From assembly GCF_003334405.1 (NCBI RefSeq), contig NZ_QOWM01000012.1: a DNA stretch of 64,000 nucleotides; one strand, 5' to 3'. Position 1 is the first letter of the stretch. Each line of letters begins with the position of its first letter. The stretch comes from Escherichia coli (GTDB lineage: Bacteria; Pseudomonadota; Gammaproteobacteria; Enterobacterales; Enterobacteriaceae). The notes below the pieces were generated by a model, which saw only the letters and a program-made list of their open reading frames with translations, was not told the DNA's origin and made no database searches. Made by a program: the position numbers and the translations under genes. Of this stretch, positions 10,924 to 63,815 are shown piece by piece.

Positions 10924-11391
10924 CTACTTAATGCGCTGGGTGCGGATATATTCCTGCGCCCCTTCCAGTTGCTTCTGCATCGTCATCAACCGTTCTCTGA
11001 GGGTGAAATAATCCCGTTCAGCGGTGTCTGCCAGTCGGGGGCTGGTTGCATTATCCATGCTGGTGGGTCCGGTGGCTTCACGCACGGCTGCGGAGCAACT
11101 GGCATTGACCCGCAGGCGCTTACGACCAGCGGCAACATCAGCGCGCAGAGTTTCATTTTCAGTTTTCGCATCGGCTAACTCCTTCGTGTATTTTGCATCG
11201 ATCGCAGCAACATCACGCTGACGCTGCTGCATGTCAGCGATGGTGGCGGTCGCCTGCTTCAGCTCACTGACTTTTTTATCACGCTGTTCTTTGTAGGCGA
11301 TGGCGTTATCACGGTAATGATTGACCGCCCACGACAGGCAGACGATGATGCAGATAACCAGAGCGGAGATAATCGCGGTTACTCTGCTCAT
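10924..11391 (-). CDS. Rz: Spanin inner-membrane subunit Rz
   Basis: Strongly similar to lambda Rz ([31 protein letters not shown]...); ORF track start is 11403, likely start is MSRV at ~11391. Confidence 0.85.
10986..11171 (-). CDS. Rz1: Spanin outer-membrane lipoprotein Rz1, embedded in Rz in another frame
   Basis: 61-aa ORF with lipobox LVVSAC and proline-rich [29 protein letters not shown], as in lambda Rz1. Confidence 0.8.
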
Positions 11392-11885
11392 TGTTGCCCC
11401 CACAAACAGACTTCACGCTCAATCTCACGACGAGTCATCAGGCCTTTCCATTGCTTACCGCCAGCGTATGTCCAGCGACGTAGCTGGTCACATGCGCCTT
11501 TGATATCGCCCTGGTTGATTTTGCGAAGAAGCGTCGATGTTCTGAAATTGCCAGCACCCACGTTGTAGACGAACGAGTAAAGAGCGCCGCGCGTTGTTTC
11601 CGGTATATCGACTTTGATGTACGGGTTAATTTGTCTGGCGACCGTGGCAAGGTCTTTATTCAGGAGGGCTTTGCATTCTGCTTCGGTATACGTTTTACCT
11701 AGCATGATGTCTTTTCCGGTGTGTCCGTGACATACAGTCCATACGCCAACGATATCTTTGTATGGTATGTAGCTGACACCTTCCAGGCCATCGTCACCAC
11801 TCGGACCAGTGATGAGCACAGACGCTATGGCAACAGCCCCACCACCAATAGCAGCAGCAACAGCCTTGCGTAATGATGGCGACAT
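11388..11885 (-). CDS. R: SAR endolysin (phage lysozyme, phage 21 R-like)
   Basis: 165-aa ORF with an N-terminal weakly hydrophobic signal-anchor-release segment [18 protein letters not shown], then a lysozyme-like domain. Confidence 0.9.
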
Positions 11886-12100
11886 TATTCACCTCTCGCA
11901 GCCTTACGCTTATCTTCTTTAATCTTGAAATAAAGGTTTGTCAGATACGTCAGCAAGCCAAATACCAGACTACCTAGCACACCTATTGCCGCCCACTGTG
12001 AGGGCGTGACTTTATCGAGCAACTGTAAAAACCAGTACCCGGCACTACCTGCTGAGGTGCCATAGGCGACACCCGTTGTTAACTTATCCATGGATTTCAT
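11885..12100 (-). CDS. S: Pinholin (phage 21 S-like)
   Basis: 71-aa [29 protein letters not shown]... with the dual-start MKSM motif and two transmembrane segments, paired with the SAR endolysin. Confidence 0.9.
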
Positions 12101-33810: not shown

Positions 33811-34368
33811 TTATCCTTCGATAAAAGCCATCCCTGTAAATGTCCGTCGCGGGTTGCCACGTTCAATCTGGTGATGGAACATTCGCCGCTGCGATTTCAG
33901 CGCCGCGCTATTTTCCTGTTGCTGTTGCTCCAGCTTCCAGGCAATCAGCAATCGTGCCAGCCGCTTGTTAGCATGCTGACTACGCTCTGACTGAACCTTC
34001 ACGCTAATACCGGATGCCAAATGCGTGGCGCGTACCGCCGAGTCGGTTTTATTGACATGTTGACCGCCCGGCCCCGACGAACGCAGCGTCTCATAACGGA
34101 TTGCATCCGATTGTTCCTGCTCATCAGCGGTAAAACGCCCAATGCCCAGAAACCAGTTTTTGCGCCCATGATGAGGCCGATACGGACTCGGACAAATCCA
34201 CTGAATAGTGCCACACCAGCTTTCGCTTAATGCCCATGCGTTATCGCCATCGAGAGAAACCAGCGCCGAACGCAGTGTGTCAGAGTAGCGGCCCGTTTCT
34301 GTTTCCAGCACCGTTACCGCGACGTCTTGCCGGGTAAAAACGACCAACAGAGAAGAACGCTGCGCCAA
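33811..34368 (-). pseudogene. prfH: Release factor homolog PrfH, 5'-truncated
   Basis: Retains GGQ motif [16 protein letters not shown] but lacks the native N-terminus; abuts the rtcB fragment. Confidence 0.7.
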
Positions 34369-34546
34369 TCGGGTAGCCGCGTCCGGGGTGTAAATCTGGC
34401 ATCCCCACTACGCGCTGCATGTTGGGTAAATTTGCCGTGGTGTGTAATTGTTGGATCGCTAAACTCTCGATCCACAGGTCATCAGATGCGATGGTAAATA
34501 CCGCATCGGATAAGGGACGAATATATTTGCCCATGTACCATTCCAT
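34280..34546 (-). pseudogene. RtcB-family RNA ligase N-terminal fragment (ykfJ-like)
   Basis: 88-aa ORF with [18 protein letters not shown], the RtcB N-terminal motif, then loss of frame into prfH. Confidence 0.55.
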
Positions 34547-45895: not shown

Positions 45896-46873
45896 TTATC
45901 CCAATAAACTCCTCACCGTCTGGCTGGAAATTCGCGCCTGACCATTCACCGCCTGCAATAACACCTGATAGTTATGATTCGCGCTATCCAACACGCCGCC
46001 GAGATTTTCCGACGCCTGCACGGCGTTTTCCGTTTGCGGGAAGCGGGACATGCCGTCGATCAACTGGCGGGCTTTTTCCTGCTGCACCGCCATTTGCGCG
46101 CGCTGCTGATTAATGTTTTCTAACATCTGGGAAATCCCTGCCCCGCCCTGTTGCAGGCTTTGCGCTAAACGCTCGGCCTGCGACGGTTCGGCAAAGGTTT
46201 TTAGCGGCATAAACGCCGACTTATCACCATCGGTGCGCACGCTTAAGGTGCTTTCAATGTTGGGCCACTGCTTTTCGGTGGTGGAGAAGCTGATGCCGTC
46301 CGCTTGCTGATGCAGTTGCACACCCACGCGGCGCAGGGCGTTGGTCAGCCGCGTCTGATACTGCGCGGCGCTGTCATCCTCAGACAGCATCACCGCCGAA
46401 AGCTGAGTCTGCCGCCCGTCAGAGACGCTGAACATGCGCGTTCCCGGCGTGGGGTTGTGTACGAGATTCGCCAGATCCGGCGAGTGAAAAGTCACCCGCG
46501 CCTCGCCCTGCAACACTGGCTGCAACTGGCGGTCTACCGCACCGCCGGAAAGCGCGGTGCGTTTGTCCAGCATCTGCATCAGCGCCGTACTCTGCGCCTG
46601 CCCGCCCTTACGCTGGCTGTGACGATAATCGAGCAACTGCTGCTCCAGTTGCCCGAGGTAGTGATCCGCCTGCTGCAACGTGGTGAGCTGGTCGTTAAGC
46701 TGCACGCTGTAACGCTGCGGGCGAGTGGTAATCAGCGGCGAGGCCGGATATTCACTCGCCGTCGCCGGGAGTTTTTGCCGCACCGCCTGAGTGGGCGCAA
46801 CGGTTGACGACGATACCGCAGCGCTATGCGCGCTGCCGGTGGCGAGTGACGAAGAAGTAAGTCCGACCTGCAT
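45896..46873 (-). CDS. lafW: Lateral-flagella-specific protein of unknown function
   Basis: 325-aa Gln-rich ORF at the conserved position between lafZ and the flgL homolog. Confidence 0.6.
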   Translation of the reverse strand: MQVGLTSSSLATGSAHSAAVSSSTVAPTQAVRQKLPATASEYPASPLITTRPQRYSVQLNDQLTTLQQADHYLGQLEQQLLDYRHSQRKGGQAQSTALMQMLDKRTALSGGAVDRQLQPVLQGEARVTFHSPDLANLVHNPTPGTRMFSVSDGRQTQLSAVMLSEDDSAAQYQTRLTNALRRVGVQLHQQADGISFSTTEKQWPNIESTLSVRTDGDKSAFMPLKTFAEPSQAERLAQSLQQGGAGISQMLENINQQRAQMAVQQEKARQLIDGMSRFPQTENAVQASENLGGVLDSANHNYQVLLQAVNGQARISSQTVRSLLG

Positions 46874-47833: not shown

Positions 47834-49210
47834 TTAGCTGCACATTTCCAGCACCGAATCGAAAATCTCGGCCCCGGCGGAAATGACTTTCAGATTGGCT
47901 TCATAAATTTGTTGATAGGTGATCAGGTTAACCGCCTCTTCGTCCATGCTGACGCCGCTGACGCTGCTCTGCTGGTTTTGCGCTGCGGAATAGACATTGG
48001 ACGCGGCATCGACTTCCGTCTGGTTTTGCTGGCTGTAAATGCCGATATTGCTGATGATTGACGAGCACGCCTGCCCGACCGTCACACTGCCAAGATTGGC
48101 AATTTCCAGCGGTTCGGTGGAGATGTTGATCAGCGCCTGCAGGTTGTCGCTGTTACCGCTTTCGTCCGGCGAACTGGAAAACGCCAGCTCATCGGCGGTG
48201 ATATCCGGGTTAACGGTCAGTGGGCCATCGGCATTGCTGGCGTCATAAATAAACAGCGGCTCGCCGGGGTTACCGTTGAGATCGTAGCCCTGCGCCAGCT
48301 GGTTGTTGACCGCATCGGCAAACTGCGAGGCCATGCTGTTGATGGTGTCGGTCAACGGCGTCAGCACATCGTTTTGATAATCAAACAGTGCGCCTAATGA
48401 ACCTCCAGTGTCGGTGGTCATCGTCGAGGTGGTGCCAGCGAAGGTCAGCGACATGGTCGGCGTGCCGTCGGCGTTGGTTTCCAGCGCGATGGTCGAGCTT
48501 TGTTGCCCGCTCACCAGCGGCTGACCGTTTTTCAGGGTGACGTTGTAGTTGCCCTGGTCGTCGATATTGACCTGCACTTCCATCATCCCGCTCAGTTCTT
48601 CCACCATCTGATCGCGGGCGTCGTACAGCGCAGAGGCGTTATCACCGTTGGCTTCGGCCTGAGCAATTTGCTGGTTATAGCTGGCGATACCGCTGGTGAG
48701 CGTGTTGATTTGCGACACCATCGCCTGCTGCTGGCTGATGATTTCCGTGCTTTGCGAGTCGACGTAATCGAGCGTGTTATCAATACGCAACGACAGCGCC
48801 CCGGCTTCGCTGATCACCTGCTCGCGCAGGGCGGAATCATCGGGGCTGGTGGTCGCTTCGTTAAGGGCGGCGAAGAAGTTATCGAAGCCGCCGCTCAGGC
48901 TGCTGTTATCGTCGCTTAGTACCGCTTCCAGTTGGCTGAGATACCCCTGCTGGGTGCTGTAATAGCCGTAATCGCTGGCGGCATACCACACCTGATTCAC
49001 CTGATACTGGTTGGAGACGCGGCGAATGCTGTCCACCTGTACGCCGTTACCGGCGCTGTTCGGCGAACCGCCGCTGGCACCGATGGTGCTGATCTCCGCC
49101 ACCTGGCGAGTGTAGCCAGTGATCATGGCGTTAGCGGTGTTTTGCGCCGTGACGTTCAGCTCCACCTGCGCGGTTGATGCGCCGCTGTAGCCGATGTTAA
49201 TCATGTCCAT
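47834..49210 (-). CDS. lfgK: Hook-associated protein, FlgK-like
   Basis: 458-aa ORF with FlgK-like termini. Confidence 0.85.
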   Translation of the reverse strand: MDMINIGYSGASTAQVELNVTAQNTANAMITGYTRQVAEISTIGASGGSPNSAGNGVQVDSIRRVSNQYQVNQVWYAASDYGYYSTQQGYLSQLEAVLSDDNSSLSGGFDNFFAALNEATTSPDDSALREQVISEAGALSLRIDNTLDYVDSQSTEIISQQQAMVSQINTLTSGIASYNQQIAQAEANGDNASALYDARDQMVEELSGMMEVQVNIDDQGNYNVTLKNGQPLVSGQQSSTIALETNADGTPTMSLTFAGTTSTMTTDTGGSLGALFDYQNDVLTPLTDTINSMASQFADAVNNQLAQGYDLNGNPGEPLFIYDASNADGPLTVNPDITADELAFSSSPDESGNSDNLQALINISTEPLEIANLGSVTVGQACSSIISNIGIYSQQNQTEVDAASNVYSAAQNQQSSVSGVSMDEEAVNLITYQQIYEANLKVISAGAEIFDSVLEMCS

Positions 49211-49274: not shown

Positions 49275-49500
<226 letters not shown>

Positions 49501-49513
49501 GAACGTCGGAGCC

Positions 49514-49813
49514 TCACCTATGCTTCGGCGACAACTGCTTCACAATCATCGCCGCAATCCCAATCCCGTGCTGCTGCGCCAGGGTGTTACACAACTCATC
49601 GTCATAAAATCCCTGCATCATGCGCACCGAATCGCTGTTAAATGGGTTATCTTTCGAATCAAACAACTCGTTGGTTTTACGCATCTCTTTCAGCATGTTG
49701 CGTAAAAAAATCGCCTCAAACTGTTCGGCGGCCTGCCTGATATCATTGGCCTGAACCTTCGGCCCCATTAACGCATCGCTGCCGTCAATCCCGCCGCTGC
49801 CGTTAACTTTCAT
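49514..49813 (-). CDS. lfgJ: Rod-binding protein, FlgJ N-terminal-domain-only homolog
   Basis: 99-aa ORF carrying only the rod-binding region; no muramidase domain. Confidence 0.75.
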   Translation of the reverse strand: MKVNGSGGIDGSDALMGPKVQANDIRQAAEQFEAIFLRNMLKEMRKTNELFDSKDNPFNSDSVRMMQGFYDDELCNTLAQQHGIGIAAMIVKQLSPKHR

Positions 49814-50928
49814 CAGATCACCTCCAGGTCGGCATCCAGCGCGCCCGCTTCATGCAGCGCCTGCAAAATTGACATAATGTCATCCGGCGTCGCACCTAAA
49901 CTGTTCAACGCATTGACCAGCGTTTTCAGGCTGCTCGACTCCGGCAAACTCACCACGCCCGGACGGGCATGATTCACCGCGATATTGCTCTGCGGCGTTA
50001 CCGCTGTGCGCCCGCCCGCAAAGGCATTCGGCTGGCTGACGTTGCTGGTTTCGTTAATCGAAACGGTCAAACTGCCGTGCGACACCGCCGCCGCGTGCAG
50101 CGCAACGCCATCGCCCATCACCACCGTGCCGGTACGCGAGTTAAACACCACGCGAGCGCGGATTTTCTCTGCCTGCACCTGCACATCGTCCAGTTGCGAC
50201 ATAAACGCCACCCGCGCACCGGGGCTGGTAGGCGCACGCACGGTAACGTTGGTGGAACTCTGTGCGGTGGCAATGCCACCAAACGAGGCGTTAATCGCCG
50301 CCGCAATGTTGTTAGCGTCTTTAAACGACGGACGTTTCAGGTTGAGGGTGATAGTGTCGCCCATCTGAAAATCGCTGGGGATCTCGCGCTCCACCGTTGC
50401 GCCGTTAGGAATTAACCCGGCGGTTGGAGTATTAACCGTTACGCTGGAGCCACTAGCCCCGGTGGCGTTCATCCCGCCGACCACCACGCTGCCCTGCGCC
50501 AGGGCATACACTTCACCATCTGCGCCGTGCAACTGCGTCAACAGCAAGGTGCCGCCGCGAATACTTTTCGCATCGCCAATCGACGAGACGGTGACATCAA
50601 TGGTCTGCCCGCGCGAGTACATCGGCGGCAACGTGGCGCTCACCGCCACTGCGGCGACGTTTTTCACCTTCGGGTCGATTTTATTCGGCAACTGCACGCC
50701 AAACTGGCGCAGCATATTGGTGATGGTCTGGTTGGTGAATTTGACCTGGTTTTTATCACCGGTACCGTCGAGGCCGACCACCAGGCTGTAGCCGACCAGT
50801 TGGTTTTCACGCACGCCCTGTACGTTAACCAGTGACTCCAGCGATTGCGCCAGCACCACGCCGGGTAGCGCCAGGCTTACGGCTACGACCACTGTTTTTA
50901 TCCAGTTTTGCATTGCACTCTCCGGCAT
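49813..50928 (-). CDS. lfgI: P-ring protein, FlgI-like
   Basis: 371-aa ORF with signal peptide and FlgI-like sequence. Confidence 0.9.
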
Positions 50929-51796: not shown

Positions 51797-52582
51797 TTAC
51801 AGCGTCTGGCTGATGTACTGCAACATATCGTCCGCCGCCGACACCATTTTGGCGTTCATCTCGTACGCGCGTTGCACCGTAATCATCGCCACCATTTCGT
51901 TGACGATATCCACGTTCGAGCCTTCCAGTGCGTTGTCCTGCAAAGTGCCAAGCCCATCTTCGCCCGGCACACCTTCTGTCGGCTGACCGCTGGCGGCGGT
52001 TTCCAGATACAGGTTGTCGCCCTCGGCGGAAAGCCCCGCCGGGTTGGCGAAGTTAACCAGCGTCAGTTGCCCTAACTCGGTCGCGTCGCTGTCGCCGGGT
52101 AAGATCGCCGTCACTGTGCCATCCTCACCAAACGCGACGTTGGTGGCCCCTGCCGGAACGTCGATTTCCGGCTGCAACGGCAAGCCCTGCGAGTTGGTCA
52201 GCACGCCGTCGGCGTTCACCTGCAAGTTGCCATCGCGGATATAGGCGATATCGCCGTTAGCCTTTTGCACCTGCAAAAATCCCTGCCCCATAATGGCGAC
52301 ATTCATCGCGTTGTCGGTGGTTTCGACGTTGCCTTCGGTGAAGGTTTTCTGGGTACCGACAATGCGCACGCCGCTACCGAATTGCAGCCCGGTCGGCATG
52401 ATGTTGTTCTGGTCGAGCATCGCGCCCGGCGCTTCCTGGGTCTGGTAGAACAGATCCTGAAACATCACCCGGTCGCGCTTGAAGCCGGTGGTATTAACGT
52501 TGGCGATGTTGTTGGCAATCGCGCTCATTTCAGCATCCTGCGCCGAGAGGCCGGTTTTGCTGATCCATAATGCTGCGTTCAT
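51797..52582 (-). CDS. lfgG: Distal rod protein, FlgG-like
   Basis: 261-aa ORF with conserved rod-protein termini. Confidence 0.9.
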   Translation of the reverse strand: MNAALWISKTGLSAQDAEMSAIANNIANVNTTGFKRDRVMFQDLFYQTQEAPGAMLDQNNIMPTGLQFGSGVRIVGTQKTFTEGNVETTDNAMNVAIMGQGFLQVQKANGDIAYIRDGNLQVNADGVLTNSQGLPLQPEIDVPAGATNVAFGEDGTVTAILPGDSDATELGQLTLVNFANPAGLSAEGDNLYLETAASGQPTEGVPGEDGLGTLQDNALEGSNVDIVNEMVAMITVQRAYEMNAKMVSAADDMLQYISQTL

Positions 52583-52660: not shown

Positions 52661-53398
52661 TTACGAGCCGCGCAATAAGCGGTTGCCCGCGTCGCTGATA
52701 TCTTCGGCGGTTTTCATCATCTTGATCTGCGCTTCGAACTGGCGGTTCATGGCGATGGACGACATCATTTCGCTCACCGCCGAGACGTTGCTGCCCTCGA
52801 GAAAACCGCCGCTGACTTTGATATTTTCATCGCGCTGGGCCGGAACGCCGTCCGCCGTTATCAACATCCCTTCAGGATTTTTCGCCAGGTTAGCGACCGG
52901 GATATCCACCAGCTTCAGGCGGTCGATATCCATCGTCGCGGTCACGTCGCCGTCATCGGGCGTCACCGACAGCGTGCCGTCGCTGCCAAACGAAGCAATG
53001 GCATTCGGCGGCAGAATGATCGGGCCGTTATCCCCCAGCACCAGATTGCCGTCGATGGCCAGTTGCCCCTGGTCGTCCTGCTGAATGTTGCCGTTGCGGG
53101 TATACACTTCGTTGCCGTTTTTATCCTGCACCGCAATGTAACCCGCGCCCTGAATCGCCACGTCCAGCGGGCGTTCGGTTTTCTCCGCTACACCCGTGCT
53201 GTCGTTCACGCCGCTGGCCCCTTCCTGCGCCATATAGCGCGTGTCGAAGCCGCCGCCTTTCACCTTGTCGTTGGTTGCCATTGCCATATCGGCGCGAAAA
53301 CCGTTGGTGTTGACGTTCGCCAGGTTGTTGGCGCTAATCTGCTGCTCGTACAGGGTCTGAGAAGCACCGCTCAGGGCGGTATAAATCAGGCGGTCCAT
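52661..53398 (-). CDS. lfgF: Proximal rod protein, FlgF-like
   Basis: 245-aa ORF with rod-protein termini. Confidence 0.85.
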   Translation of the reverse strand: MDRLIYTALSGASQTLYEQQISANNLANVNTNGFRADMAMATNDKVKGGGFDTRYMAQEGASGVNDSTGVAEKTERPLDVAIQGAGYIAVQDKNGNEVYTRNGNIQQDDQGQLAIDGNLVLGDNGPIILPPNAIASFGSDGTLSVTPDDGDVTATMDIDRLKLVDIPVANLAKNPEGMLITADGVPAQRDENIKVSGGFLEGSNVSAVSEMMSSIAMNRQFEAQIKMMKTAEDISDAGNRLLRGS

Positions 53399-54743: not shown

Positions 54744-55457
54744 TCACGCCACATCACTGTCGGCATCGGGTACGCCAAACTGGCTAATCATGGTGAACGG
54801 CACTTCGCCCACGCCTGCAACGTTGAGCACCGGAGAGCTGCCGTCGAGCGGGATGCGCACATCTTCTACTTCGCCGGAGACTTCAATCGGCACCTCTTCT
54901 TCGCCGGTGTTGGTCACCACCGAAACGTCGTAATCGCCCGGCGGGATGCCGTAATCGGCGGGATCCACCGAGAAATCCACCTGGCCTGGCCCGACGGACG
55001 AACTACCTTGCGGGATCAGCGAGACGGTGTAGTCATCGCCTGCGGCATCGGTAAAGTGGAGATCGGCGGTGGTACAGGCGTCGTCCAGCGTGGCGCGACC
55101 GTTAATGGTCTGGTCGCTGACCTGCAAGGCGGTGGTCTGCACCATAATGTCGTCGCCCACCAGGTTGCCGAGCGCCATCACCTGAATGTTGCTCATCAGC
55201 ACCGCGTTGGTGTTGGCCTGCACGCTCATCTCTTCCATCATCGCCACCTGCGCCATCGACGAAAGCTGGTCGATATATTCGGTGGCGTCGGTTGGGTCGG
55301 TCGGGTCCTGGTTTTGGATCTCGGCGACAAACAGCGTCAGGAAGGTATCGACGGGCGAGCTATCGCTGCTGCTTGTCGTGTCGCTGGCCGCCACATTATT
55401 GCTTTCCGCCGTGGCGGTCGGCTGCGGCGATTGCGCATTCAGCGCCAGGGTATTCAT
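54744..55457 (-). CDS. lfgD: Hook capping protein, FlgD-like
   Basis: 237-aa ORF at the conserved position between flgC and flgE homologs. Confidence 0.8.
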   Translation of the reverse strand: MNTLALNAQSPQPTATAESNNVAASDTTSSSDSSPVDTFLTLFVAEIQNQDPTDPTDATEYIDQLSSMAQVAMMEEMSVQANTNAVLMSNIQVMALGNLVGDDIMVQTTALQVSDQTINGRATLDDACTTADLHFTDAAGDDYTVSLIPQGSSSVGPGQVDFSVDPADYGIPPGDYDVSVVTNTGEEEVPIEVSGEVEDVRIPLDGSSPVLNVAGVGEVPFTMISQFGVPDADSDVA

Positions 55458-55888
55458 CAGGCTTCTCCCAGTTTCAGCAAACTTTGCTGCATACTTTTCA
55501 CGTTGTTGAGCACATCGACATTGGTTTCGAAATCGCGCGAAGCCGACATCATGTCCGCCATCTGTTCCACCACGTTGACGTCGGGATACCAGACATCCCC
55601 GTTAGCATCCGCCAGAGGTGAATGCGGTTCATAGCGTTTCACCGCCCCGCCGGTTTGCAGCACGTCCTGCACCTGCACGCTGGCAGCGTCAATGGCATGA
55701 CGATGTGTACCCGCCAGCAAGCTGTGGTGATACACCGCCGCAAACACCGGGCTGCGCGCTTTATACGCCTGCGCCTCGCTACCGGCAGGCGCCTCGGCGT
55801 TCGCCAGGTTACTGGCGACGGTATTCAGGCGAATGGTCTGTGCCGTCATCGCCGAGCCGGAAATCTGATAGATATCAGTAAATGACAT
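55457..55888 (-). CDS. lfgC: Rod protein, FlgC-like
   Basis: 143-aa ORF with FlgC-like sequence. Confidence 0.9.
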   Translation of the reverse strand: MSFTDIYQISGSAMTAQTIRLNTVASNLANAEAPAGSEAQAYKARSPVFAAVYHHSLLAGTHRHAIDAASVQVQDVLQTGGAVKRYEPHSPLADANGDVWYPDVNVVEQMADMMSASRDFETNVDVLNNVKSMQQSLLKLGEA

Positions 55889-55890
55889 GC

Positions 55891-56226
55891 TTATTTCCCT
55901 TCAATGGCCTCTCTGATGCCGCTGATTTGCAGATTCAGAAAGGTCAGACTGCTTTGATAATCCATACTATTTTGTGAAAACCGCGCCTGTTCGCTGTTCA
56001 GCTCCACGGTGTTGCCATCTTCCGACGGCTGCATCGGCACGCGGTACTGGACATCCACCGCCGCGTTATTTGCCCGTTGCATCTCCCTGGCAAAATCAAT
56101 ATCTTTAGCCTTGAAATTTGGCGTATCGACGTTCGCCAGATTCGCAGTCAGTAGCTCGGTCCTCTCAAGACGTAACTTCACTGCCTGCGGATGTACTCCC
56201 AATGCCTGTTGAAAACTGATCCCCAT
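55891..56226 (-). CDS. lfgB: Rod protein, FlgB-like
   Basis: The ORF track starts at 56256; an internal start MGISFQQALG at 56226 leaves room for a divergent promoter with lfgA. Confidence 0.8.
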   Translation of the reverse strand: MGISFQQALGVHPQAVKLRLERTELLTANLANVDTPNFKAKDIDFAREMQRANNAAVDVQYRVPMQPSEDGNTVELNSEQARFSQNSMDYQSSLTFLNLQISGIREAIEGK

Positions 56227-57933: not shown

Positions 57934-58902
57934 TTGCACATCCTGCACAGCATTAAAGACTGGAAGCCACCTATGAGTTTTATTGAATGTTACGAACCGG
58001 AATACGTGCGCAATTTTATGACGCAATACCCCGGTTCGCCTTTATACGTCCGCAAGGTGTGGAAAAACGAGATTCGCCTGAGCCTGATGCTGACAGAGCC
58101 AGAAAGCTGCGAAGCGATGCTCAACGATGTCAGGGCCTTTGATTTACAGCTCACCTACCGTCCTGTGGAAGAAAATGCCGCAGAGCTTTCCGCGCGCGAT
58201 GCGATAGTAAACCAGGTGATTTTGAGTACCCTCACGCTCCGTGATTTAACACCAGAACTGTCATTGTATGCCGTCGGTATCCTGCTCTCCCGCGCCAGTA
58301 AAATGCCGGGCAGAGACGGAGATATTCTTGCCCGTTTGACGACGCTGCCGCAGGCGCTGGCCGATCATGCGAAAAAAGGCATCCTACAGGCACAGTTCGC
58401 CCAGCTGCCGCCCGTGCCACAGCTGGTGCGTCACCTGGCCACGTTACTCGGGAGTTTTACGTTTGACTGGTCGATTTTGCCGGAAAGCCCGCGCAAAACT
58501 TCGCTGCCGTTGCAGATGCCTTTGCTGACGCTGCATGACGCTAACAGCGAAGCCCTGTTACAACAGCAGCTTCAGACGCAGTGGCAAACCACCTGGCAAC
58601 AGCATTTTGCCACCGCGCCCTGGATGATGCGTAACTGGCTGATTTACCGCGTTTACCACGATGTGATTGGGCAGACTGACGGGGCGGATTATTTCCCGCT
58701 GGTGTGCGATTTTTATCTCCTCCGCACGTTAATCAGTTTATGGACGCTGGATGGTTCTTCGCTGCGGCAGGAGGATATTTTCGCCCTCTTTGCCATGTTT
58801 GAACGCTGGCGAGCCAGTGAAAATGCGCTGTTGGTTCGCCAGCAAATTCAGTCGTTATGTGCCGCCGACCCGCTGCTTTCAGCGTTTTCGCTGCTAACGT
58901 GA
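57934..58902 (+). CDS. Hypothetical protein embedded in Flag-2
   Basis: 322-aa ORF with no recognised motif; precedes the glycosyltransferase. Confidence 0.5.
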   Translation: MHILHSIKDWKPPMSFIECYEPEYVRNFMTQYPGSPLYVRKVWKNEIRLSLMLTEPESCEAMLNDVRAFDLQLTYRPVEENAAELSARDAIVNQVILSTLTLRDLTPELSLYAVGILLSRASKMPGRDGDILARLTTLPQALADHAKKGILQAQFAQLPPVPQLVRHLATLLGSFTFDWSILPESPRKTSLPLQMPLLTLHDANSEALLQQQLQTQWQTTWQQHFATAPWMMRNWLIYRVYHDVIGQTDGADYFPLVCDFYLLRTLISLWTLDGSSLRQEDIFALFAMFERWRASENALLVRQQIQSLCAADPLLSAFSLLT

Positions 58903-58904
58903 GT

Positions 58905-59045
58905 CGCTCTGTGCGCGCTTTGCCCCTCACCCTAACCCTCTCCCCAAAGGGGCGAGGGGACCGATCGAGCACAGTGTTAAAATCGGCGCTGATTTTCTCC
59001 CTCTCCCTGTGGGAGAGGGTTGGGGTGAGGGCATCAGCGCGCACA
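58905..59045. repeat. Long imperfect palindromic repeat element, distinct from REP
   Basis: gcccctcaccctaaccctctccccaaaggggcgagggg ... ctccctctccctgtgggagagggttggggtgagggc. Confidence 0.5.
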
Positions 59046-61525
59046 TTCATCACATTCACCCATTAACTCACCCAAACACCATGCCAACACCAACCATCAT
59101 CAAAACACTCAACACCCACCGCGAAAAACCGTTTGTCAGCGTCGTCACGCCAACCTGGAACCGCGGCGCATTCCTGCCGTACCTGCTCTATATGTACCGC
59201 TATCAGGATTACCCGGCAGACCGCCGCGAACTCATCATCCTCGACGATTCCCCACAAAGCCATCAACACATCATCGACCGCCTGACCAATGGCACGCCGG
59301 AAGCCTTTAACATCCGCTACATCCATCACCCGGAAAAACTGCCGCTGGGCAAAAAACGCAACATGCTCAACGAACTGGCGCGCGGCGAATACATCCTCTG
59401 CATGGACGATGACGACTACTACCCGGCAGATAAAATCTCTTACACCATCGCCATGATGCAAAAACACCGGGCGCTCATCTCCGGCTCCGATCAGATCCCC
59501 ATCTGGTACAGCCACATCAACCGCATCTTTCAAAGCCGCAGCTTTGGCCCGCATAACATCCTCAACGGCACCTTTTGCTATCACCGTAACTACCTGAAAA
59601 AGCACCGTTACGACGATGATTGCAATTTAGGCGAAGAGAAACGTTTCACCGACAATTTCAGCGTAAACCCGCTGCAACTGCCCGGCGAGCGCACGATTCT
59701 GTGTATCTCGCATAGTCAAAACACCTTTGATAAAGATTTTATTCTCGGGGCCAGCACGCCAGTAAACGCGGCGCTTACGGATATCGTCCGCGATCCGCTG
59801 CTGCGCAATGCTTATCTGAGTCTGCATAACGCCACTCATCACCAGGCGATCAACCATCAGGCGATCGATCAGATCGTTCTGCTGAATCTGGATAAACGCC
59901 CGGATCGCTTACAACAGATCCGTGAAGAACTGGCATTGCTGCATATTCCACCTGAGAAGATCACCCGCCTTGCCGCCAGTGAAGATGAAAACGGTCAACG
60001 GGGCCGCCGTCAGTCGCACTTACAGGCGCTGCGCCTGGCGCAACAGCACGGCTGGCAAAACTACCTGCTGCTGGAAGATGACGCGGTTATTCTCAAGCAG
60101 GAGAAACATATTCAGGTACTGAACACGCTGCTGGCGAGCCTGGCGAAAATTCCCTGGCAGGTGATGATCCTCGGTGGCGAAATTTCGCAGGGAACGATGC
60201 TAAAAAGTTTGCCGGGGCTGGTGCACGCGCGGGACTGCCGCAAAGTGTGCGCGTATCTGGTGAACAGCCGCTACTACCCGCAACTGGCGCAGCAGATGAG
60301 CAACGATGAGCACTCGCTGGAAGCCTGCTGGCAGCCGCTGCTACGCGCCGACAAATGGCTGGCCTGTTACCCGAGCCTTTGCTACCAGCGACCGGGTTTT
60401 AGTGATATCGAGAAAAAAACGACTGATAATATTGCTCACTATTTCAATAAGTTACCCGTAGCCACCAAGCCATCTACATTACCCATCGCCGATACCATCG
60501 GCTTTTTTATGGAAACCTCATTCCACTACACGCTGTACCGCCCAATCATCACCGCTCTACAGGCGCAGGGGCAGAGCTGCACACTAGTGATCAATGACCG
60601 CGTGTTTAAACCGTTTCTTGATGAGATGCTGGAAACACTGAAAAACATCGACGATCCGCAGCTTAAAGGTATGCGTCTGTCAGAAATGCAGACACATGGT
60701 CAGCGGGTGAAATGCCTGGTCAGCCCCTACCACACGCCTGCGCTCAATGGCCTGGCGGCGGTGAACATCCGCGCTATGTACGGCTTAGCCAAAGAGACGT
60801 GGAACCACGCCGACTGGAATCGTTTTTACCAAAGCATTTTGTGTTATAGCCACTACAGTCAGCAGGCGCTGGCGCATTTCGGCAGCGCAAAAGTGGTCGG
60901 CAACCCGCGCTTCGACGCCTGGCATAACGGCACGTTCGATCGCGCGTTGCCGGAAAACATCCAATCAGATTACCGTAAACCTACGGTGCTCTATGCCCCA
61001 ACGTTTAGCGCATTAAGCTCCCTGCCCCACTGGGCTGAAAAATTGGGCCGCTTGAGCGGTGATGTGAACCTGATTTGCAAACTGCACCATGGCACCTGCT
61101 CACGCCCGGAAGAAGCAGCATCGCTGGCCCTGGTGCGCAGGCATTTAAAACAGCGCACCGACTCCGCCCGCCACACGCTGGCGCTGCTGGCAAAAGCCGA
61201 TTACGTGCTGACCGATAACAGCGGGTTTATTTTCGATGCTATCCACGTTGATAAGCGGGTGATCCTGCTCGACTTTCCGGGCATGAATGATTTGCTCGAC
61301 GGTGAGAAAAGTTATTCCACGGCAGAGAGCGCCGACCAGCGAATCCGCGAAATATTGCCGGTTGCTCATGATGTTGCAGAACTGCGTTATTTGTTGTCAG
61401 AGGCGTTTGACTGGGGGTCGGTGCAGGCGCGGCTTACGGAGATTCGCCATCACTATTGCGATGCGTTTATGGATGGCAAGGCGGGAGAACGGGCGGCGAT
61501 TGTGATTGTGGAGGCGCTGGGGTAA
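59009..61525 (+). CDS. Multidomain glycosyltransferase: N-terminal GT2-like, central GT25-like, C-terminal TagF-like CDP-glycerol glycerophosphotransferase
   Basis: 838-aa ORF; VSVVTPTWNR...ILDDS and CMDDDDYY (GT-A DxD motifs); LLNLDKRPDR (GT25-like); VLYAPTF and YVLTDNSGFIFDAIH (TagF-like). Likely start MPTPTII at ~59081. Confidence 0.75.
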   Translation: MGEGWGEGISAHIHHIHPLTHPNTMPTPTIIKTLNTHREKPFVSVVTPTWNRGAFLPYLLYMYRYQDYPADRRELIILDDSPQSHQHIIDRLTNGTPEAFNIRYIHHPEKLPLGKKRNMLNELARGEYILCMDDDDYYPADKISYTIAMMQKHRALISGSDQIPIWYSHINRIFQSRSFGPHNILNGTFCYHRNYLKKHRYDDDCNLGEEKRFTDNFSVNPLQLPGERTILCISHSQNTFDKDFILGASTPVNAALTDIVRDPLLRNAYLSLHNATHHQAINHQAIDQIVLLNLDKRPDRLQQIREELALLHIPPEKITRLAASEDENGQRGRRQSHLQALRLAQQHGWQNYLLLEDDAVILKQEKHIQVLNTLLASLAKIPWQVMILGGEISQGTMLKSLPGLVHARDCRKVCAYLVNSRYYPQLAQQMSNDEHSLEACWQPLLRADKWLACYPSLCYQRPGFSDIEKKTTDNIAHYFNKLPVATKPSTLPIADTIGFFMETSFHYTLYRPIITALQAQGQSCTLVINDRVFKPFLDEMLETLKNIDDPQLKGMRLSEMQTHGQRVKCLVSPYHTPALNGLAAVNIRAMYGLAKETWNHADWNRFYQSILCYSHYSQQALAHFGSAKVVGNPRFDAWHNGTFDRALPENIQSDYRKPTVLYAPTFSALSSLPHWAEKLGRLSGDVNLICKLHHGTCSRPEEAASLALVRRHLKQRTDSARHTLALLAKADYVLTDNSGFIFDAIHVDKRVILLDFPGMNDLLDGEKSYSTAESADQRIREILPVAHDVAELRYLLSEAFDWGSVQARLTEIRHHYCDAFMDGKAGERAAIVIVEALG

Positions 61526-61534
61526 ACCGCGCAA

Positions 61535-61620
<86 letters not shown>

Positions 61621-61642
61621 AATACATCTCTGTTTTAGTACT

Positions 61643-62038
61643 TTATAAAAGCCCTCTAATCACCTCAATAATCCCCGTCGTCGACACCGACGGCGTGCGG
61701 GGGAAATAGACCACCTCACAAATATACGCAAAGCTGTCAAACTTCCCTGCCCAGTCATCCCCCATCACTAAAATATCCGCACTGTACCCGCGCAAATACT
61801 CCGCTTTTTGCTCCAGCGACTCTTCCAGAAATACGCCATCCACGCACGCCAGCCCGGCGATGATCGCCATGCGGTCATCCTGATGGTAAACCGGTGCCCT
61901 GCCCTTTTTGGCGATGTTCAGGGCGTCGGACGATACGCCGACCAGCAGCCGCTCGCCCAATGCGCGGGCGCGTTGTAAAAGGCGCAGATGACCGACATGA
62001 AACACATCGAAGGTGCCGAAGGTGATGACCGTTTTCAT
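61643..62038 (-). CDS. Glycerol-3-phosphate cytidylyltransferase (TagD-like)
   Basis: MKTVITFGTFDVFHVGHLRLL (HxGH motif) and VMGDDWAGKF...VVYFPRTPSVSTTGII match TagD; the ORF track extends to 62176, which would overlap lfiJ. Confidence 0.8.
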   Translation of the reverse strand: MKTVITFGTFDVFHVGHLRLLQRARALGERLLVGVSSDALNIAKKGRAPVYHQDDRMAIIAGLACVDGVFLEESLEQKAEYLRGYSADILVMGDDWAGKFDSFAYICEVVYFPRTPSVSTTGIIEVIRGLL

Positions 62039-62040
62039 GG

Positions 62041-62502
62041 CTACTCCGCTAATTTGTGCCGCAGCCAGCACTGCACGGCGATGTCGTCCACCGCTTTTTG
62101 CGCTTTCGCCGTGGCGCTTTCTTGTTGCTCGCGGCGTTTGTCGTCCAGCGTCAGGGCGACTACTTTCTCTTCGCACGCCGCCGCCGTGAGGTTTTTCTGC
62201 ATTCGCGTGGCTTTGATATTGGCCAGCGTTTTTTCCTGCTCCTGCCAGGCGATTACCTTGCGCAGGGTGCCTTTGTAGCCGCTGACGTTTTTCAGCGATT
62301 CCACCGACACCGCCGCACCCGCAGATGTTTTCTCGACAAGGTAGCCTAACGCCTTGATATTGTTGTCATAACCCGCGCAAATCTGTTTTTGCTTTGCCAG
62401 CTCGACGGTTTTGTCTTTGACCGATTTATCCCGCAGGCGCTGCAACTGCGCCAGGGTGTCGATGATTTGTCGCATAGTTACTGTTCTGCCTTTTTGGCAC
62501 AA
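62041..62502 (-). CDS. lfiJ: Export apparatus protein, FliJ-like
   Basis: Coiled-coil ORF directly downstream of the fliI homolog; start may be the internal M at ~62475. Confidence 0.7.
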   Translation of the reverse strand: MCQKGRTVTMRQIIDTLAQLQRLRDKSVKDKTVELAKQKQICAGYDNNIKALGYLVEKTSAGAAVSVESLKNVSGYKGTLRKVIAWQEQEKTLANIKATRMQKNLTAAACEEKVVALTLDDKRREQQESATAKAQKAVDDIAVQCWLRHKLAE

Positions 62503-63815
62503 GGAAAGAGGATTTGCAGGCGGCTTTGCACCAGTTCGAGGGAGGCGGGTTCGCGCATCTCCTGGCGCAAAAATCGCTCAATGGCCGGAAACATTTTCAC
62601 CGCTTTGTCGACGCTGGCGTCGGCACCTGCCACATAGCCGCCGAGCGGGATCAGAGGTTTGATCTCCATATAGGCGGCATAGTTTTGCTTTAACGCGCGG
62701 GCGGATTGCTGATGTTCCAGGCTGGTGACCTGGTTCATGCAGCGGCTGATCGACTGGCCGATATCAATGGCCGGATAGTGCCCCGCTTCCGCCAGTTTGC
62801 GGGTTAATACGATATGCCCGTCCAGCACCGCGCGCGCGCAGTCGACAATCGGATCTTGCTGGTCGTCACCTTCCGCCAGCACGGTGTAGATGGCGGTCAT
62901 CGATCCCGCGCTTTCGCTGTTGCCTGCGCTTTCGACCAGTTTGGGGATCATGCCGAATGCCGATGGCGGATAACCTTTGGTGGCGGGCGGTTCGCCGAGC
63001 GAGAGGGCGATTTCCCGCTGCGCCATCGCGTAGCGGGTCAGGGAATCCACCAGCAGTAAGACGTGATGCCCGCGGTCGCGAAACCAGGCGGCGATGGAGT
63101 GGCACAGTTCGGTGGCTTTCAGACGCATCAGCGGCGATTCATCGGCAGGCGCGACGACGACGATAGACTTTGCCAGCCCGTCCGCGCCCAGCGAGTGGTC
63201 GATAAACTCTTTCACTTCGCGCCCGCGTTCCCCAATCAGCCCAACCACCACGATATCGGCTTTGGTCTGGCGGGTGATCATCCCCAGCAGCACGCTTTTC
63301 CCGACGCCGCTGCCTGCCATTAGTCCGACGCGCTGGCCTTTGCCGATGGTCAGCAGGCCGTTGATCGCTTTCACGCCCACGTCCAGCGGTTCGTCTACCG
63401 AACGACGAGTTAAGGGATTAACCGAGGGCGGCAACGGCGGCAGAAGGTCGTTGCCGTTCAGGCGGCCTTTGCCATCCAGCGGTTCGCCGAGGCCATTCAC
63501 CACGCGGCCTAACCAGCTTTCGCCTATCAGGATGTCGTGGGCTTTTTCTTCCGGGAAGACGCGTGCGCCTGCCATCAGGCCGACCGGCTGTTTAAACGGC
63601 ATTAAATAGGTGATGTCGCGATTAAAGCCCACGGCCTGCGCGTCGATCAGCGTGTGATTGGCACTTTCGATGCGGCACAGCTGCCCGGTCATTAGCGGGC
63701 AGCCGACACTCTCCAGCAGGATGCCGTTAAGGCGCACCAGCCGCCCGGCGACGCGGGCCAGCGGGATCGACTCCAGCGAGCGCAGGGCGTTATCGAACGC
63801 AGAAAAATCACTCAC
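62478..63815 (-). CDS. lfiI: Flagellar export ATPase, FliI-like
   Basis: 445-aa ORF with Walker A GSGVGKS and F1-ATPase-like fold; GTG start. Confidence 0.9.
   Translation of the reverse strand: MSDFSAFDNALRSLESIPLARVAGRLVRLNGILLESVGCPLMTGQLCRIESANHTLIDAQAVGFNRDITYLMPFKQPVGLMAGARVFPEEKAHDILIGESWLGRVVNGLGEPLDGKGRLNGNDLLPPLPPSVNPLTRRSVDEPLDVGVKAINGLLTIGKGQRVGLMAGSGVGKSVLLGMITRQTKADIVVVGLIGERGREVKEFIDHSLGADGLAKSIVVVAPADESPLMRLKATELCHSIAAWFRDRGHHVLLLVDSLTRYAMAQREIALSLGEPPATKGYPPSAFGMIPKLVESAGNSESAGSMTAIYTVLAEGDDQQDPIVDCARAVLDGHIVLTRKLAEAGHYPAIDIGQSISRCMNQVTSLEHQQSARALKQNYAAYMEIKPLIPLGGYVAGADASVDKAVKMFPAIERFLRQEMREPASLELVQSRLQILFPCAKKAEQ

Follow-up and report, generated by a model that had tools for sequence, protein, structure and literature searches.

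The FlgJ protein of the Escherichia coli Flag-2 lateral-type flagellar locus is a conserved, single-domain rod-binding protein

FlgJ of the flag-1 flagellum of Salmonella and E. coli combines a rod cap with a GH73 beta-N-acetylglucosaminidase, the N-terminal rod-binding region being followed by a linker and a C-terminal glucosaminidase (~150-313). For Salmonella FlgJ, 151 residues are reported as the smallest N-terminal part that still functions (cited in PMC6913195), and a 112-aa FlgJ from Liberibacter did not complement an Agrobacterium flgJ mutant (PMC6913195). FlgJ proteins of a single domain have been recorded in alpha-, delta- and epsilon-proteobacteria and in spirochaetes (Nambu et al., 2006, as cited in PMC6913195 and PMC8517470). 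In the Fla1 system of Rhodobacter sphaeroides FlgJ is a scaffold only, and the wall is cleaved by a separate enzyme, SltF, to which FlgJ binds (PMC7277832). In Borrelia burgdorferi a single-domain FlgJ interacts with LTaseBb (BB0259), an SLT-domain enzyme required for building flagella across the wall (PMC8517470). A single-domain FlgJ accompanied by a separate lytic transglycosylase is thus an already known pattern, and the feature described below is ordinary in that respect; the only new elements are a comparative pattern and a candidate class of partner, both of which we infer.

The analyzed stretch of DNA, referred to as the window, is 64 kb of E. coli chromosome. Its positions 29,100-64,000 differ from strain FORC_081 at 11 of 34,901 bases and, in the FORC_081 annotation, run from phoE through dinB to the Flag-2 (lateral-type) locus, lafU to lfiI; of 5426 complete E. 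coli genomes, 1193 (~22%) carry the region. The Flag-2 operon is named lfgNMABCDEFGHIJKL in the literature (PMC6993521), and what Flag-2 does in Escherichia is, according to PMC11420993, not understood. The FlgJ-like gene, lfgJ, and the genes and signals considered with it were as follows.

49514..49813, minus strand: lfgJ coding sequence, 99 aa, predicted rod cap/scaffold; ATG at 49813-49811, TGA at 49516-49514.
49811..49825, minus strand: translational coupling signal, a GGAGG ribosome-binding site within the 3′ end of lfgI plus the stop/start overlap, read from the sequence.
49813..50913, minus strand: lfgI, P-ring protein, the gene preceding lfgJ in its operon; ORF and RefSeq annotation mapped from FORC_081.
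47834..49210, minus strand: lfgK, hook-filament junction protein 1, the gene that follows lfgJ; ORF and annotation.
51797..52582, minus strand: lfgG, distal rod, presumed assembly substrate of the LfgJ cap; ORF and annotation.
52661..53398, minus strand: lfgF, proximal rod, presumed LfgJ partner; ORF and annotation.
55457..56226, minus strand: lfgC and lfgB, proximal rod, presumed LfgJ partners; annotation mapped from FORC_081.

The role given to lfgG is drawn from the biology of Salmonella FlgJ (PMC8517470). The order lfgI-lfgJ-lfgK corresponds to the flgI-flgJ-flgK position within the basal-body operon, the same post-flgI position as in flag-1, and RefSeq names the same CDS of FORC_081, lying in the FlgI-FlgK interval of the lateral cluster, ‘rod-binding protein’ (WP_000867284.1). 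The length of 99 aa given in the initial annotation agrees with both the ORF and its translation. The lfgI stop and the lfgJ ATG share one base (TGATG), with GGAGG 8-12 nt upstream of the ATG; by coordinates, a one-base overlap also joins flgI and flgJ of K-12. Translation of lfgJ would be coupled to that of lfgI by this arrangement.

LfgJ had been described in the initial annotation as a FlgJ homologue with only the rod-binding domain and without the C-terminal muramidase domain, and both points held when the domain search suggested there was run, since Pfam returned the following domain alone.

49535..49690, minus strand: Rod-binding domain PF10135, aa 42-93 of LfgJ, Pfam E 5.9e-14.

Model positions 1-51 of 51 were covered by this match, and LfgJ ends five residues past the rod-binding region. 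With BLASTP, LfgJ 22-98 aligned to residues 30-102 of K-12 FlgJ at 35% identity (E 2e-14), within the homologous N-terminal region. Pfam gave no match in LfgJ to the GH73 glucosaminidase domain PF01832 and none to an SLT domain (PF01464) C-terminal to PF10135. The NCBIfam equivalog for bifunctional FlgJ, TIGR02541, scored 67.8 bits against a cutoff of 193 and was matched at positions 21-91 of 294 only. The glucosaminidase half (FlgJ 141-313) had no similarity in the LfgJ ORF, and tblastn of full-length FlgJ against the whole 64-kb window returned no credible match to that half (best E 0.046 over 31 aa). By these sequence matches LfgJ is confirmed as a member of the PF10135 family lying outside the bifunctional-FlgJ family TIGR02541, and unlike flag-1 FlgJ it has neither the glucosaminidase nor the linker. 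LfgJ is better not labelled ‘peptidoglycan hydrolase’, the name that some family models and databases give it.

The AF2 model of LfgJ (mean pLDDT 71) has disordered residues 1-17 and helices at 18-49, 61-80 and 86-94. No enzyme-like fold is present in the model, for which a fold search of the PDB gave no match; sequence and fold searches of the PDB found no solved structure of a rod-binding domain. The N-terminus has no hydrophobic signal peptide (peak 11-residue hydropathy 0.24 over the first 25 windows). Since a Sec signal peptide is missing, LfgJ is presumably type III-exported, as is Salmonella FlgJ, and would leave through the Flag-2 type III apparatus by way of its disordered N-terminus. 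At 99 aa LfgJ is shorter than the 151-residue Salmonella minimum and than the 112-aa Liberibacter protein that failed to complement, so the LfgJ cap may work differently.

Between the lfgJ TGA and lfgK lies a spacer of 303 nt, which is filled by repeats.

49280..49501, no strand assigned: two REP/BIME-type units, 49292-49383 and 49410-49501, 90% identical to each other; repeat search.

These repeats occupy the place where a second domain would sit, and they account for the median of 32 matches per E. coli genome that a 901-nt query gave. An in-frame muramidase domain downstream had been named in the initial annotation as the finding that would overturn its reading. The spacer has stops in every one of the three frames and no glucosaminidase similarity, and the test for such a continuation was therefore negative both in and out of frame. 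In FORC_081, rayT (REP-associated transposase) adjoins the lfhA end of Flag-2.

REP/BIME elements directly after the stop invite the reading that lfgJ is a truncated remnant, or an annotation artefact, of a bifunctional gene whose muramidase half was removed by REP insertion; many E. coli strains, K-12 among them, have a degraded Flag-2 (PMC11420993), and the FORC_081 annotation treats lfiI, which encodes the Flag-2 export ATPase, as a pseudogene interrupted by an internal stop. In the window, however, lfiI (62478-63815, minus strand) is an intact ORF of 445 codons, and no frame holds a remnant of GH73. The stop also falls at the identical codon in 7/7 of the 99-aa sequences compared, one being that of the window and six coming from loci of Escherichia, Pseudocitrobacter and Citrobacter, with pairwise dN/dS of 0.02-0.19. 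lfgJ is a complete gene under purifying selection, with no truncation.

The close homologue clusters found were short in 104 of 104 cases, at 50-134 aa overall and about 90-134 aa where complete; the clusters for which Pfam matches were precomputed carry PF10135 and in no case a glucosaminidase domain. A genome scan with a nine-sequence alignment as query and one genome per bacterial species gave 80 loci. Forty-nine of these were Enterobacterales loci with the Flag-2 gene order, from genera that include Escherichia, Citrobacter, Yersinia (including Y. pestis), Pantoea, Erwinia, Serratia, Rahnella, Buttiauxella, Kluyvera, Enterobacter, Pragia and Leminorella, and all encode a FlgJ of 96-142 aa without GH73. 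Six Photobacterium lateral loci, used as stand-ins for Vibrionaceae, encode a FlgJ of 167-176 aa, likewise without GH73; together the two groups make up the 55 Flag-2-type loci referred to below. Scan matches with GH73 came from Alkalimonas, Alishewanella, Colwellia, Arsukibacterium and Thalassotalea, and their FlgG, FlgH and FlgI group with polar-type systems. The short FlgJ is a fixed state of Enterobacterales Flag-2 and no peculiarity of one strain. As the short form occurs in all 49 Enterobacterales loci, which are without these REPs, removal of a second domain by REP insertion is very improbable; the shared stop codon, the dN/dS values, the universal short form, the stops in the spacer and the lack of a GH73 remnant together set aside truncation, pseudogene formation and read-through.

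Because LfgJ has no catalytic domain, it would itself be unable to cut peptidoglycan, and any hole for the rod would come from an enzyme encoded outside Flag-2. Pfam searches of 14 Flag-2 proteins without an obvious structural role (among them LafW, LafZ, LafD, LafU, LafE, LafF, a 309-aa ORF, an 814-aa glycosyltransferase and a cytidylyltransferase) found no SLT, glucosaminidase, lysozyme, amidase, M23 or NlpC/P60 domain. The rest of the Flag-2 locus, by the FORC_081 annotation, holds canonical flagellar genes only and no lytic gene. Six-frame ORFs of the window and of 82 scan and contig loci (L005-L086) were searched with phmmer using a panel of Slt70, EmtA, MltC, MltD, YafL, DpaA, GH24, RrrD and FlgJ, and no lytic gene detectable with this panel lay within 10 kb of lfgJ in the 55 Flag-2-type loci; the panel held no amidase or M23 member, so genes of those kinds would be missed outside the Pfam-scanned proteins. 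None of the 16 most recurrent non-core ORFs of the Flag-2-type loci had a lytic Pfam domain, and Pfam on 110 non-core ORFs listed 20 families, a listing that is weak for families of a single member. The initial annotation had held that a lytic enzyme encoded elsewhere would be needed; its placement outside the locus is supported by these searches, and the need for one is an argument from other systems.

Individual candidates within and around the locus were considered. LafW (45896-46873, minus strand), encoded directly after lfgL in 49 of the 55 Flag-2-type loci, had no Pfam or NCBIfam match and was the only conserved Flag-2 protein whose fold was not known. In its model, built from 45 orthologues (pLDDT 69), a central alpha/beta domain is accompanied by long helices at the termini, the N-terminus being disordered, and Foldseek matched it to flagellins and FlgL/HAP3 (best E 4e-7). 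The predicted fold thus resembles flagellins and HAP3, not lysozymes, which argues against LafW as a hidden lytic partner and agrees with its label in the literature, ‘putative hook-associated protein’ (PMC6993521). The 309-aa ORF was set aside because it gave a weak match to a FliB-like flagellin lysine-N-methylase (E 5.5e-11, below cutoff), a reading that fits PMC11420993. LafD, LafZ, LafU, the glycosyltransferase and the cytidylyltransferase were set aside for want of a lytic domain in Pfam. Neighbours of Flag-2 in FORC_081 include yafL (C40 peptidase), dpaA and ivy, with mltD 25 kb away, and all are core genes, for which reason none was retained as a specific partner. In K-12, a strain without Flag-2, yafL, dpaA/yafK and mltD are also present, and these genes are therefore no specific partners of Flag-2. 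The sole peptidoglycan-degrading gene in the window encodes the prophage lysozyme RrrD (11391-11885, minus strand); with the holin EssD beside it (11888-12100, minus strand) it forms a holin-lysozyme lysis cassette 37 kb from lfgJ, an implausible partner. Set against an SltF-type split system, Flag-2 has the enzyme-less FlgJ and has no lytic transglycosylase gene inside the flagellar cluster; sltF sits in the Rhodobacter flgG operon, whereas no such gene occurs in or beside Flag-2.

The count of 0/55 Flag-2-type loci with a lytic gene linked to lfgJ is also what would be seen if no dedicated or recruited enzyme were used, a thin rod passing through gaps left by ordinary wall turnover and LfgJ acting only as a cap or chaperone for rod polymerisation. 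In the same direction, among 138 more distant representatives of the FlgJ N-domain, 49 carry GH73, five carry SLT and most have no lytic domain. Salmonella FlgJ without its C-terminal half reportedly still allows weak motility (Hirano et al., 2001). Against this, the single-domain FlgJ systems that have been tested need a lytic transglycosylase, SltF or LTaseBb (PMC7277832, PMC8517470), and the rod is reportedly wider than the mesh of the peptidoglycan (PMC8517470). An SLT or a GH73 domain is, moreover, fused to the same N-domain in two further lineages of lateral type, which argues that cleavage is useful for such flagella. Passage without an enzyme is rated as plausible but rather unlikely, and opening of the wall by an enzyme encoded elsewhere is preferred.

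Three FlgJ architectures were found in lateral-type clusters: unfused in Enterobacterales and Photobacterium, fused to SLT in Pseudomonas and Cellvibrio, and fused to GH73 in Plesiomonas. The Rod-binding+SLT fusion (PF10135+PF01464) is 338-409 aa long and is encoded right after flgI, as in the following examples.

L060 9977-11173: Rod-binding+SLT protein of Pseudomonas indica, in the flgJ position of a lateral-type cluster.
L090 10001-11017: Rod-binding+SLT protein of Cellvibrio, in the flgJ position of a lateral-type cluster.
L091 10001-11230: Rod-binding+SLT protein of a related metagenomic contig, in the flgJ position of a lateral-type cluster.

Like LfgJ, these proteins stand in the flgI-flgJ-flgK position and have an LfgJ-like N-domain, and their clusters hold LafZ- and LafW-like genes. 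The Flag-2-like content of the SLT-fusion clusters comprises a LafZ-like regulator, flagellins of ~300 aa, a 455-aa FlgK and, in the LafW position, a 348-aa ORF, which is termed LafW-like on the strength of its position; in P. indica, where the comparison was made, the cluster proteins are nearer to Flag-2 than to flag-1. All of the best-scoring 120 homologue clusters (120/120) were Rod-binding+SLT, the groups among them including Pseudomonas mendocina, stutzeri, resinovorans and alcaligenes. Databases name the fusions just ‘transglycosylase SLT domain-containing protein’, and no published description of the fusion was found in the limited literature covered. LfgJ and the N-domain of the P. 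indica fusion share 48% identity. The SLT domain of that fusion shares 38% identity with residues 504-619 of E. coli Slt70, the Q-E-S catalytic motif included; the Pseudomonas and Cellvibrio fusions differ from LfgJ in carrying a Slt70-like transglycosylase domain with the catalytic E-S. In a comparison that covered four E. coli enzymes only and left out MltA, B, F, G and RlpA, the fused SLT domain matched Slt70 better than MltD, EmtA or MltC.

The lateral cluster of Plesiomonas has the same gene order as Flag-2 (PMC4481668), but its FlgJL, unlike LfgJ, is dual-domain. In P. shigelloides (L092 10001-10987) the protein is 328 aa with PF10135+PF01832, and its closest sequences are polar-type FlgJs; FlgG, FlgH and FlgI of the same system group with Photobacterium lateral systems. 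As FlgJ is polar-like and FlgG/H/I are lateral, the sequences suggest that the Plesiomonas lateral flgJ may have been replaced or recombined, and a FlgJL that is both dual-domain and polar-like means that lateral systems vary among themselves. Concatenated FlgG+FlgH+FlgI (804 columns, 26 taxa, 200 bootstraps) gave a neighbour-joining tree with all lateral-type systems in one clade (100% bootstrap). Within it, Enterobacterales Flag-2 (all unfused) was sister to the SLT-fusion clade and Photobacterium (unfused) grouped with the Plesiomonas lateral system (GH73), each with 100% bootstrap; a distance tree of this kind supports the grouping, and the order of fusion and loss lies outside its reach.

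Fusion of SLT to the same N-domain in the sister lineage of Flag-2 makes, by Rosetta-stone reasoning, a Slt70-like enzyme the leading candidate in E. coli; the link that such a fusion documents is a functional one and belongs to another lineage, which falls short of an interaction within E. coli. That the fused domain there is SLT, not GH73, also speaks against the idea that the glucosaminidase of the bifunctional flag-1 FlgJ in the same cell opens the wall for both flagella. A dual-domain FlgJ does exist in E. coli flag-1, and polar and lateral FlgH cross-complement in Shewanella (PMC5178100). Action in trans at another basal body would be mechanistically awkward, however, because each FlgJ would reach its site by the rod and export channel of its own flagellum; the two systems are also separately regulated, and Flag-2-type loci encoding a short FlgJ are spread over many genera, and extend to Photobacterium, with differing primary systems. 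Such borrowing from flag-1 is considered improbable.

We favour, with some reserve, the reading that LfgJ is the rod cap/scaffold of Flag-2 and that the wall is opened by an unlinked housekeeping enzyme, likely of the SLT family. On the rod as it grows (LfgB/C/F/G), LfgJ would form a small domain of three helices, and the likeliest enzyme would be one of the housekeeping lytic transglycosylases of family 1 (SLT-type, Slt70-like), which LfgJ or the rod would recruit. The further step, that the enzyme-less cap itself recruits a Slt70-like housekeeping transglycosylase to the nascent rod, is put forward tentatively from sequence comparison, as possible but somewhat short of probable. The analysis established the domain content of LfgJ, that its gene is complete, conserved and syntenic, that the locus has no lytic gene and that a sister lineage has N-domain-SLT fusions; how LfgJ is exported, that it caps the rod, that a lytic enzyme is required and which enzyme is the partner are what we infer.

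The division of labour proposed would be that of FlgJ and SltF in Rhodobacter, where FlgJ is scaffold-only like LfgJ, and of FlgJ and LTaseBb in Borrelia. The partner enzymes of Rhodobacter and Borrelia are dedicated, in contrast to the housekeeping enzyme proposed for LfgJ; Borrelia is moreover a distant lineage with periplasmic flagella, and its FlgJ is needed for the hook and filament rather than for the rod. In laboratory-grown E. coli ST131 EC958, Flag-2 expression went undetected (PMC4637896), which makes the need for a wall enzyme hypothetical for E. coli itself. The consequence for E. coli biology is little, single-domain FlgJ being well documented, the gene being annotated and Flag-2 expression not having been seen in the laboratory. 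There is modest comparative value in one lateral-type family whose rod cap is unfused, SLT-fused or GH73-fused, and the pattern yields a testable candidate class, the Slt70-like housekeeping transglycosylases, for the missing wall-opening activity. If the proposal is true, lateral-type flagella use one N-domain in three ways and would offer a natural system for how wall-spanning machines hire general wall enzymes.

Several further observations were made in the window and in related loci. The Flag-2 locus looks intact up to the edge of the window, which ends inside lfiH, after lfiI. The variable region between lfgN and lfiJ (57973-62038) holds the 309-aa ORF, the 814-aa GT2 glycosyltransferase and the small cytidylyltransferase, and these three are probably flagellin-modification genes. 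In the FORC_081 region equivalent to 33811-34534 of the window, between pepD and yafP, prfH and RtcB-family remnants are annotated as partial pseudogenes. Positions 1-25900 hold a lambdoid prophage integrated at tRNA-Thr beside proA; its structural region differs from that of the FORC_081 prophage at the same site, the strains being otherwise near-identical. In 32 of the 55 Flag-2-type loci, a conserved ORF of 170-186 aa lies beside the lafZ-type (ToxR/CadC-like) regulator gene (for example L053 14176-14736, minus strand). It is absent from the E. coli locus, had no Pfam or NCBIfam match and is possibly a ToxS-like partner of LafZ. In E. coli K-12 (L088 8181-9528), the lytic transglycosylase gene emtA (mltE) directly adjoins ycgR, the flagellar brake gene.
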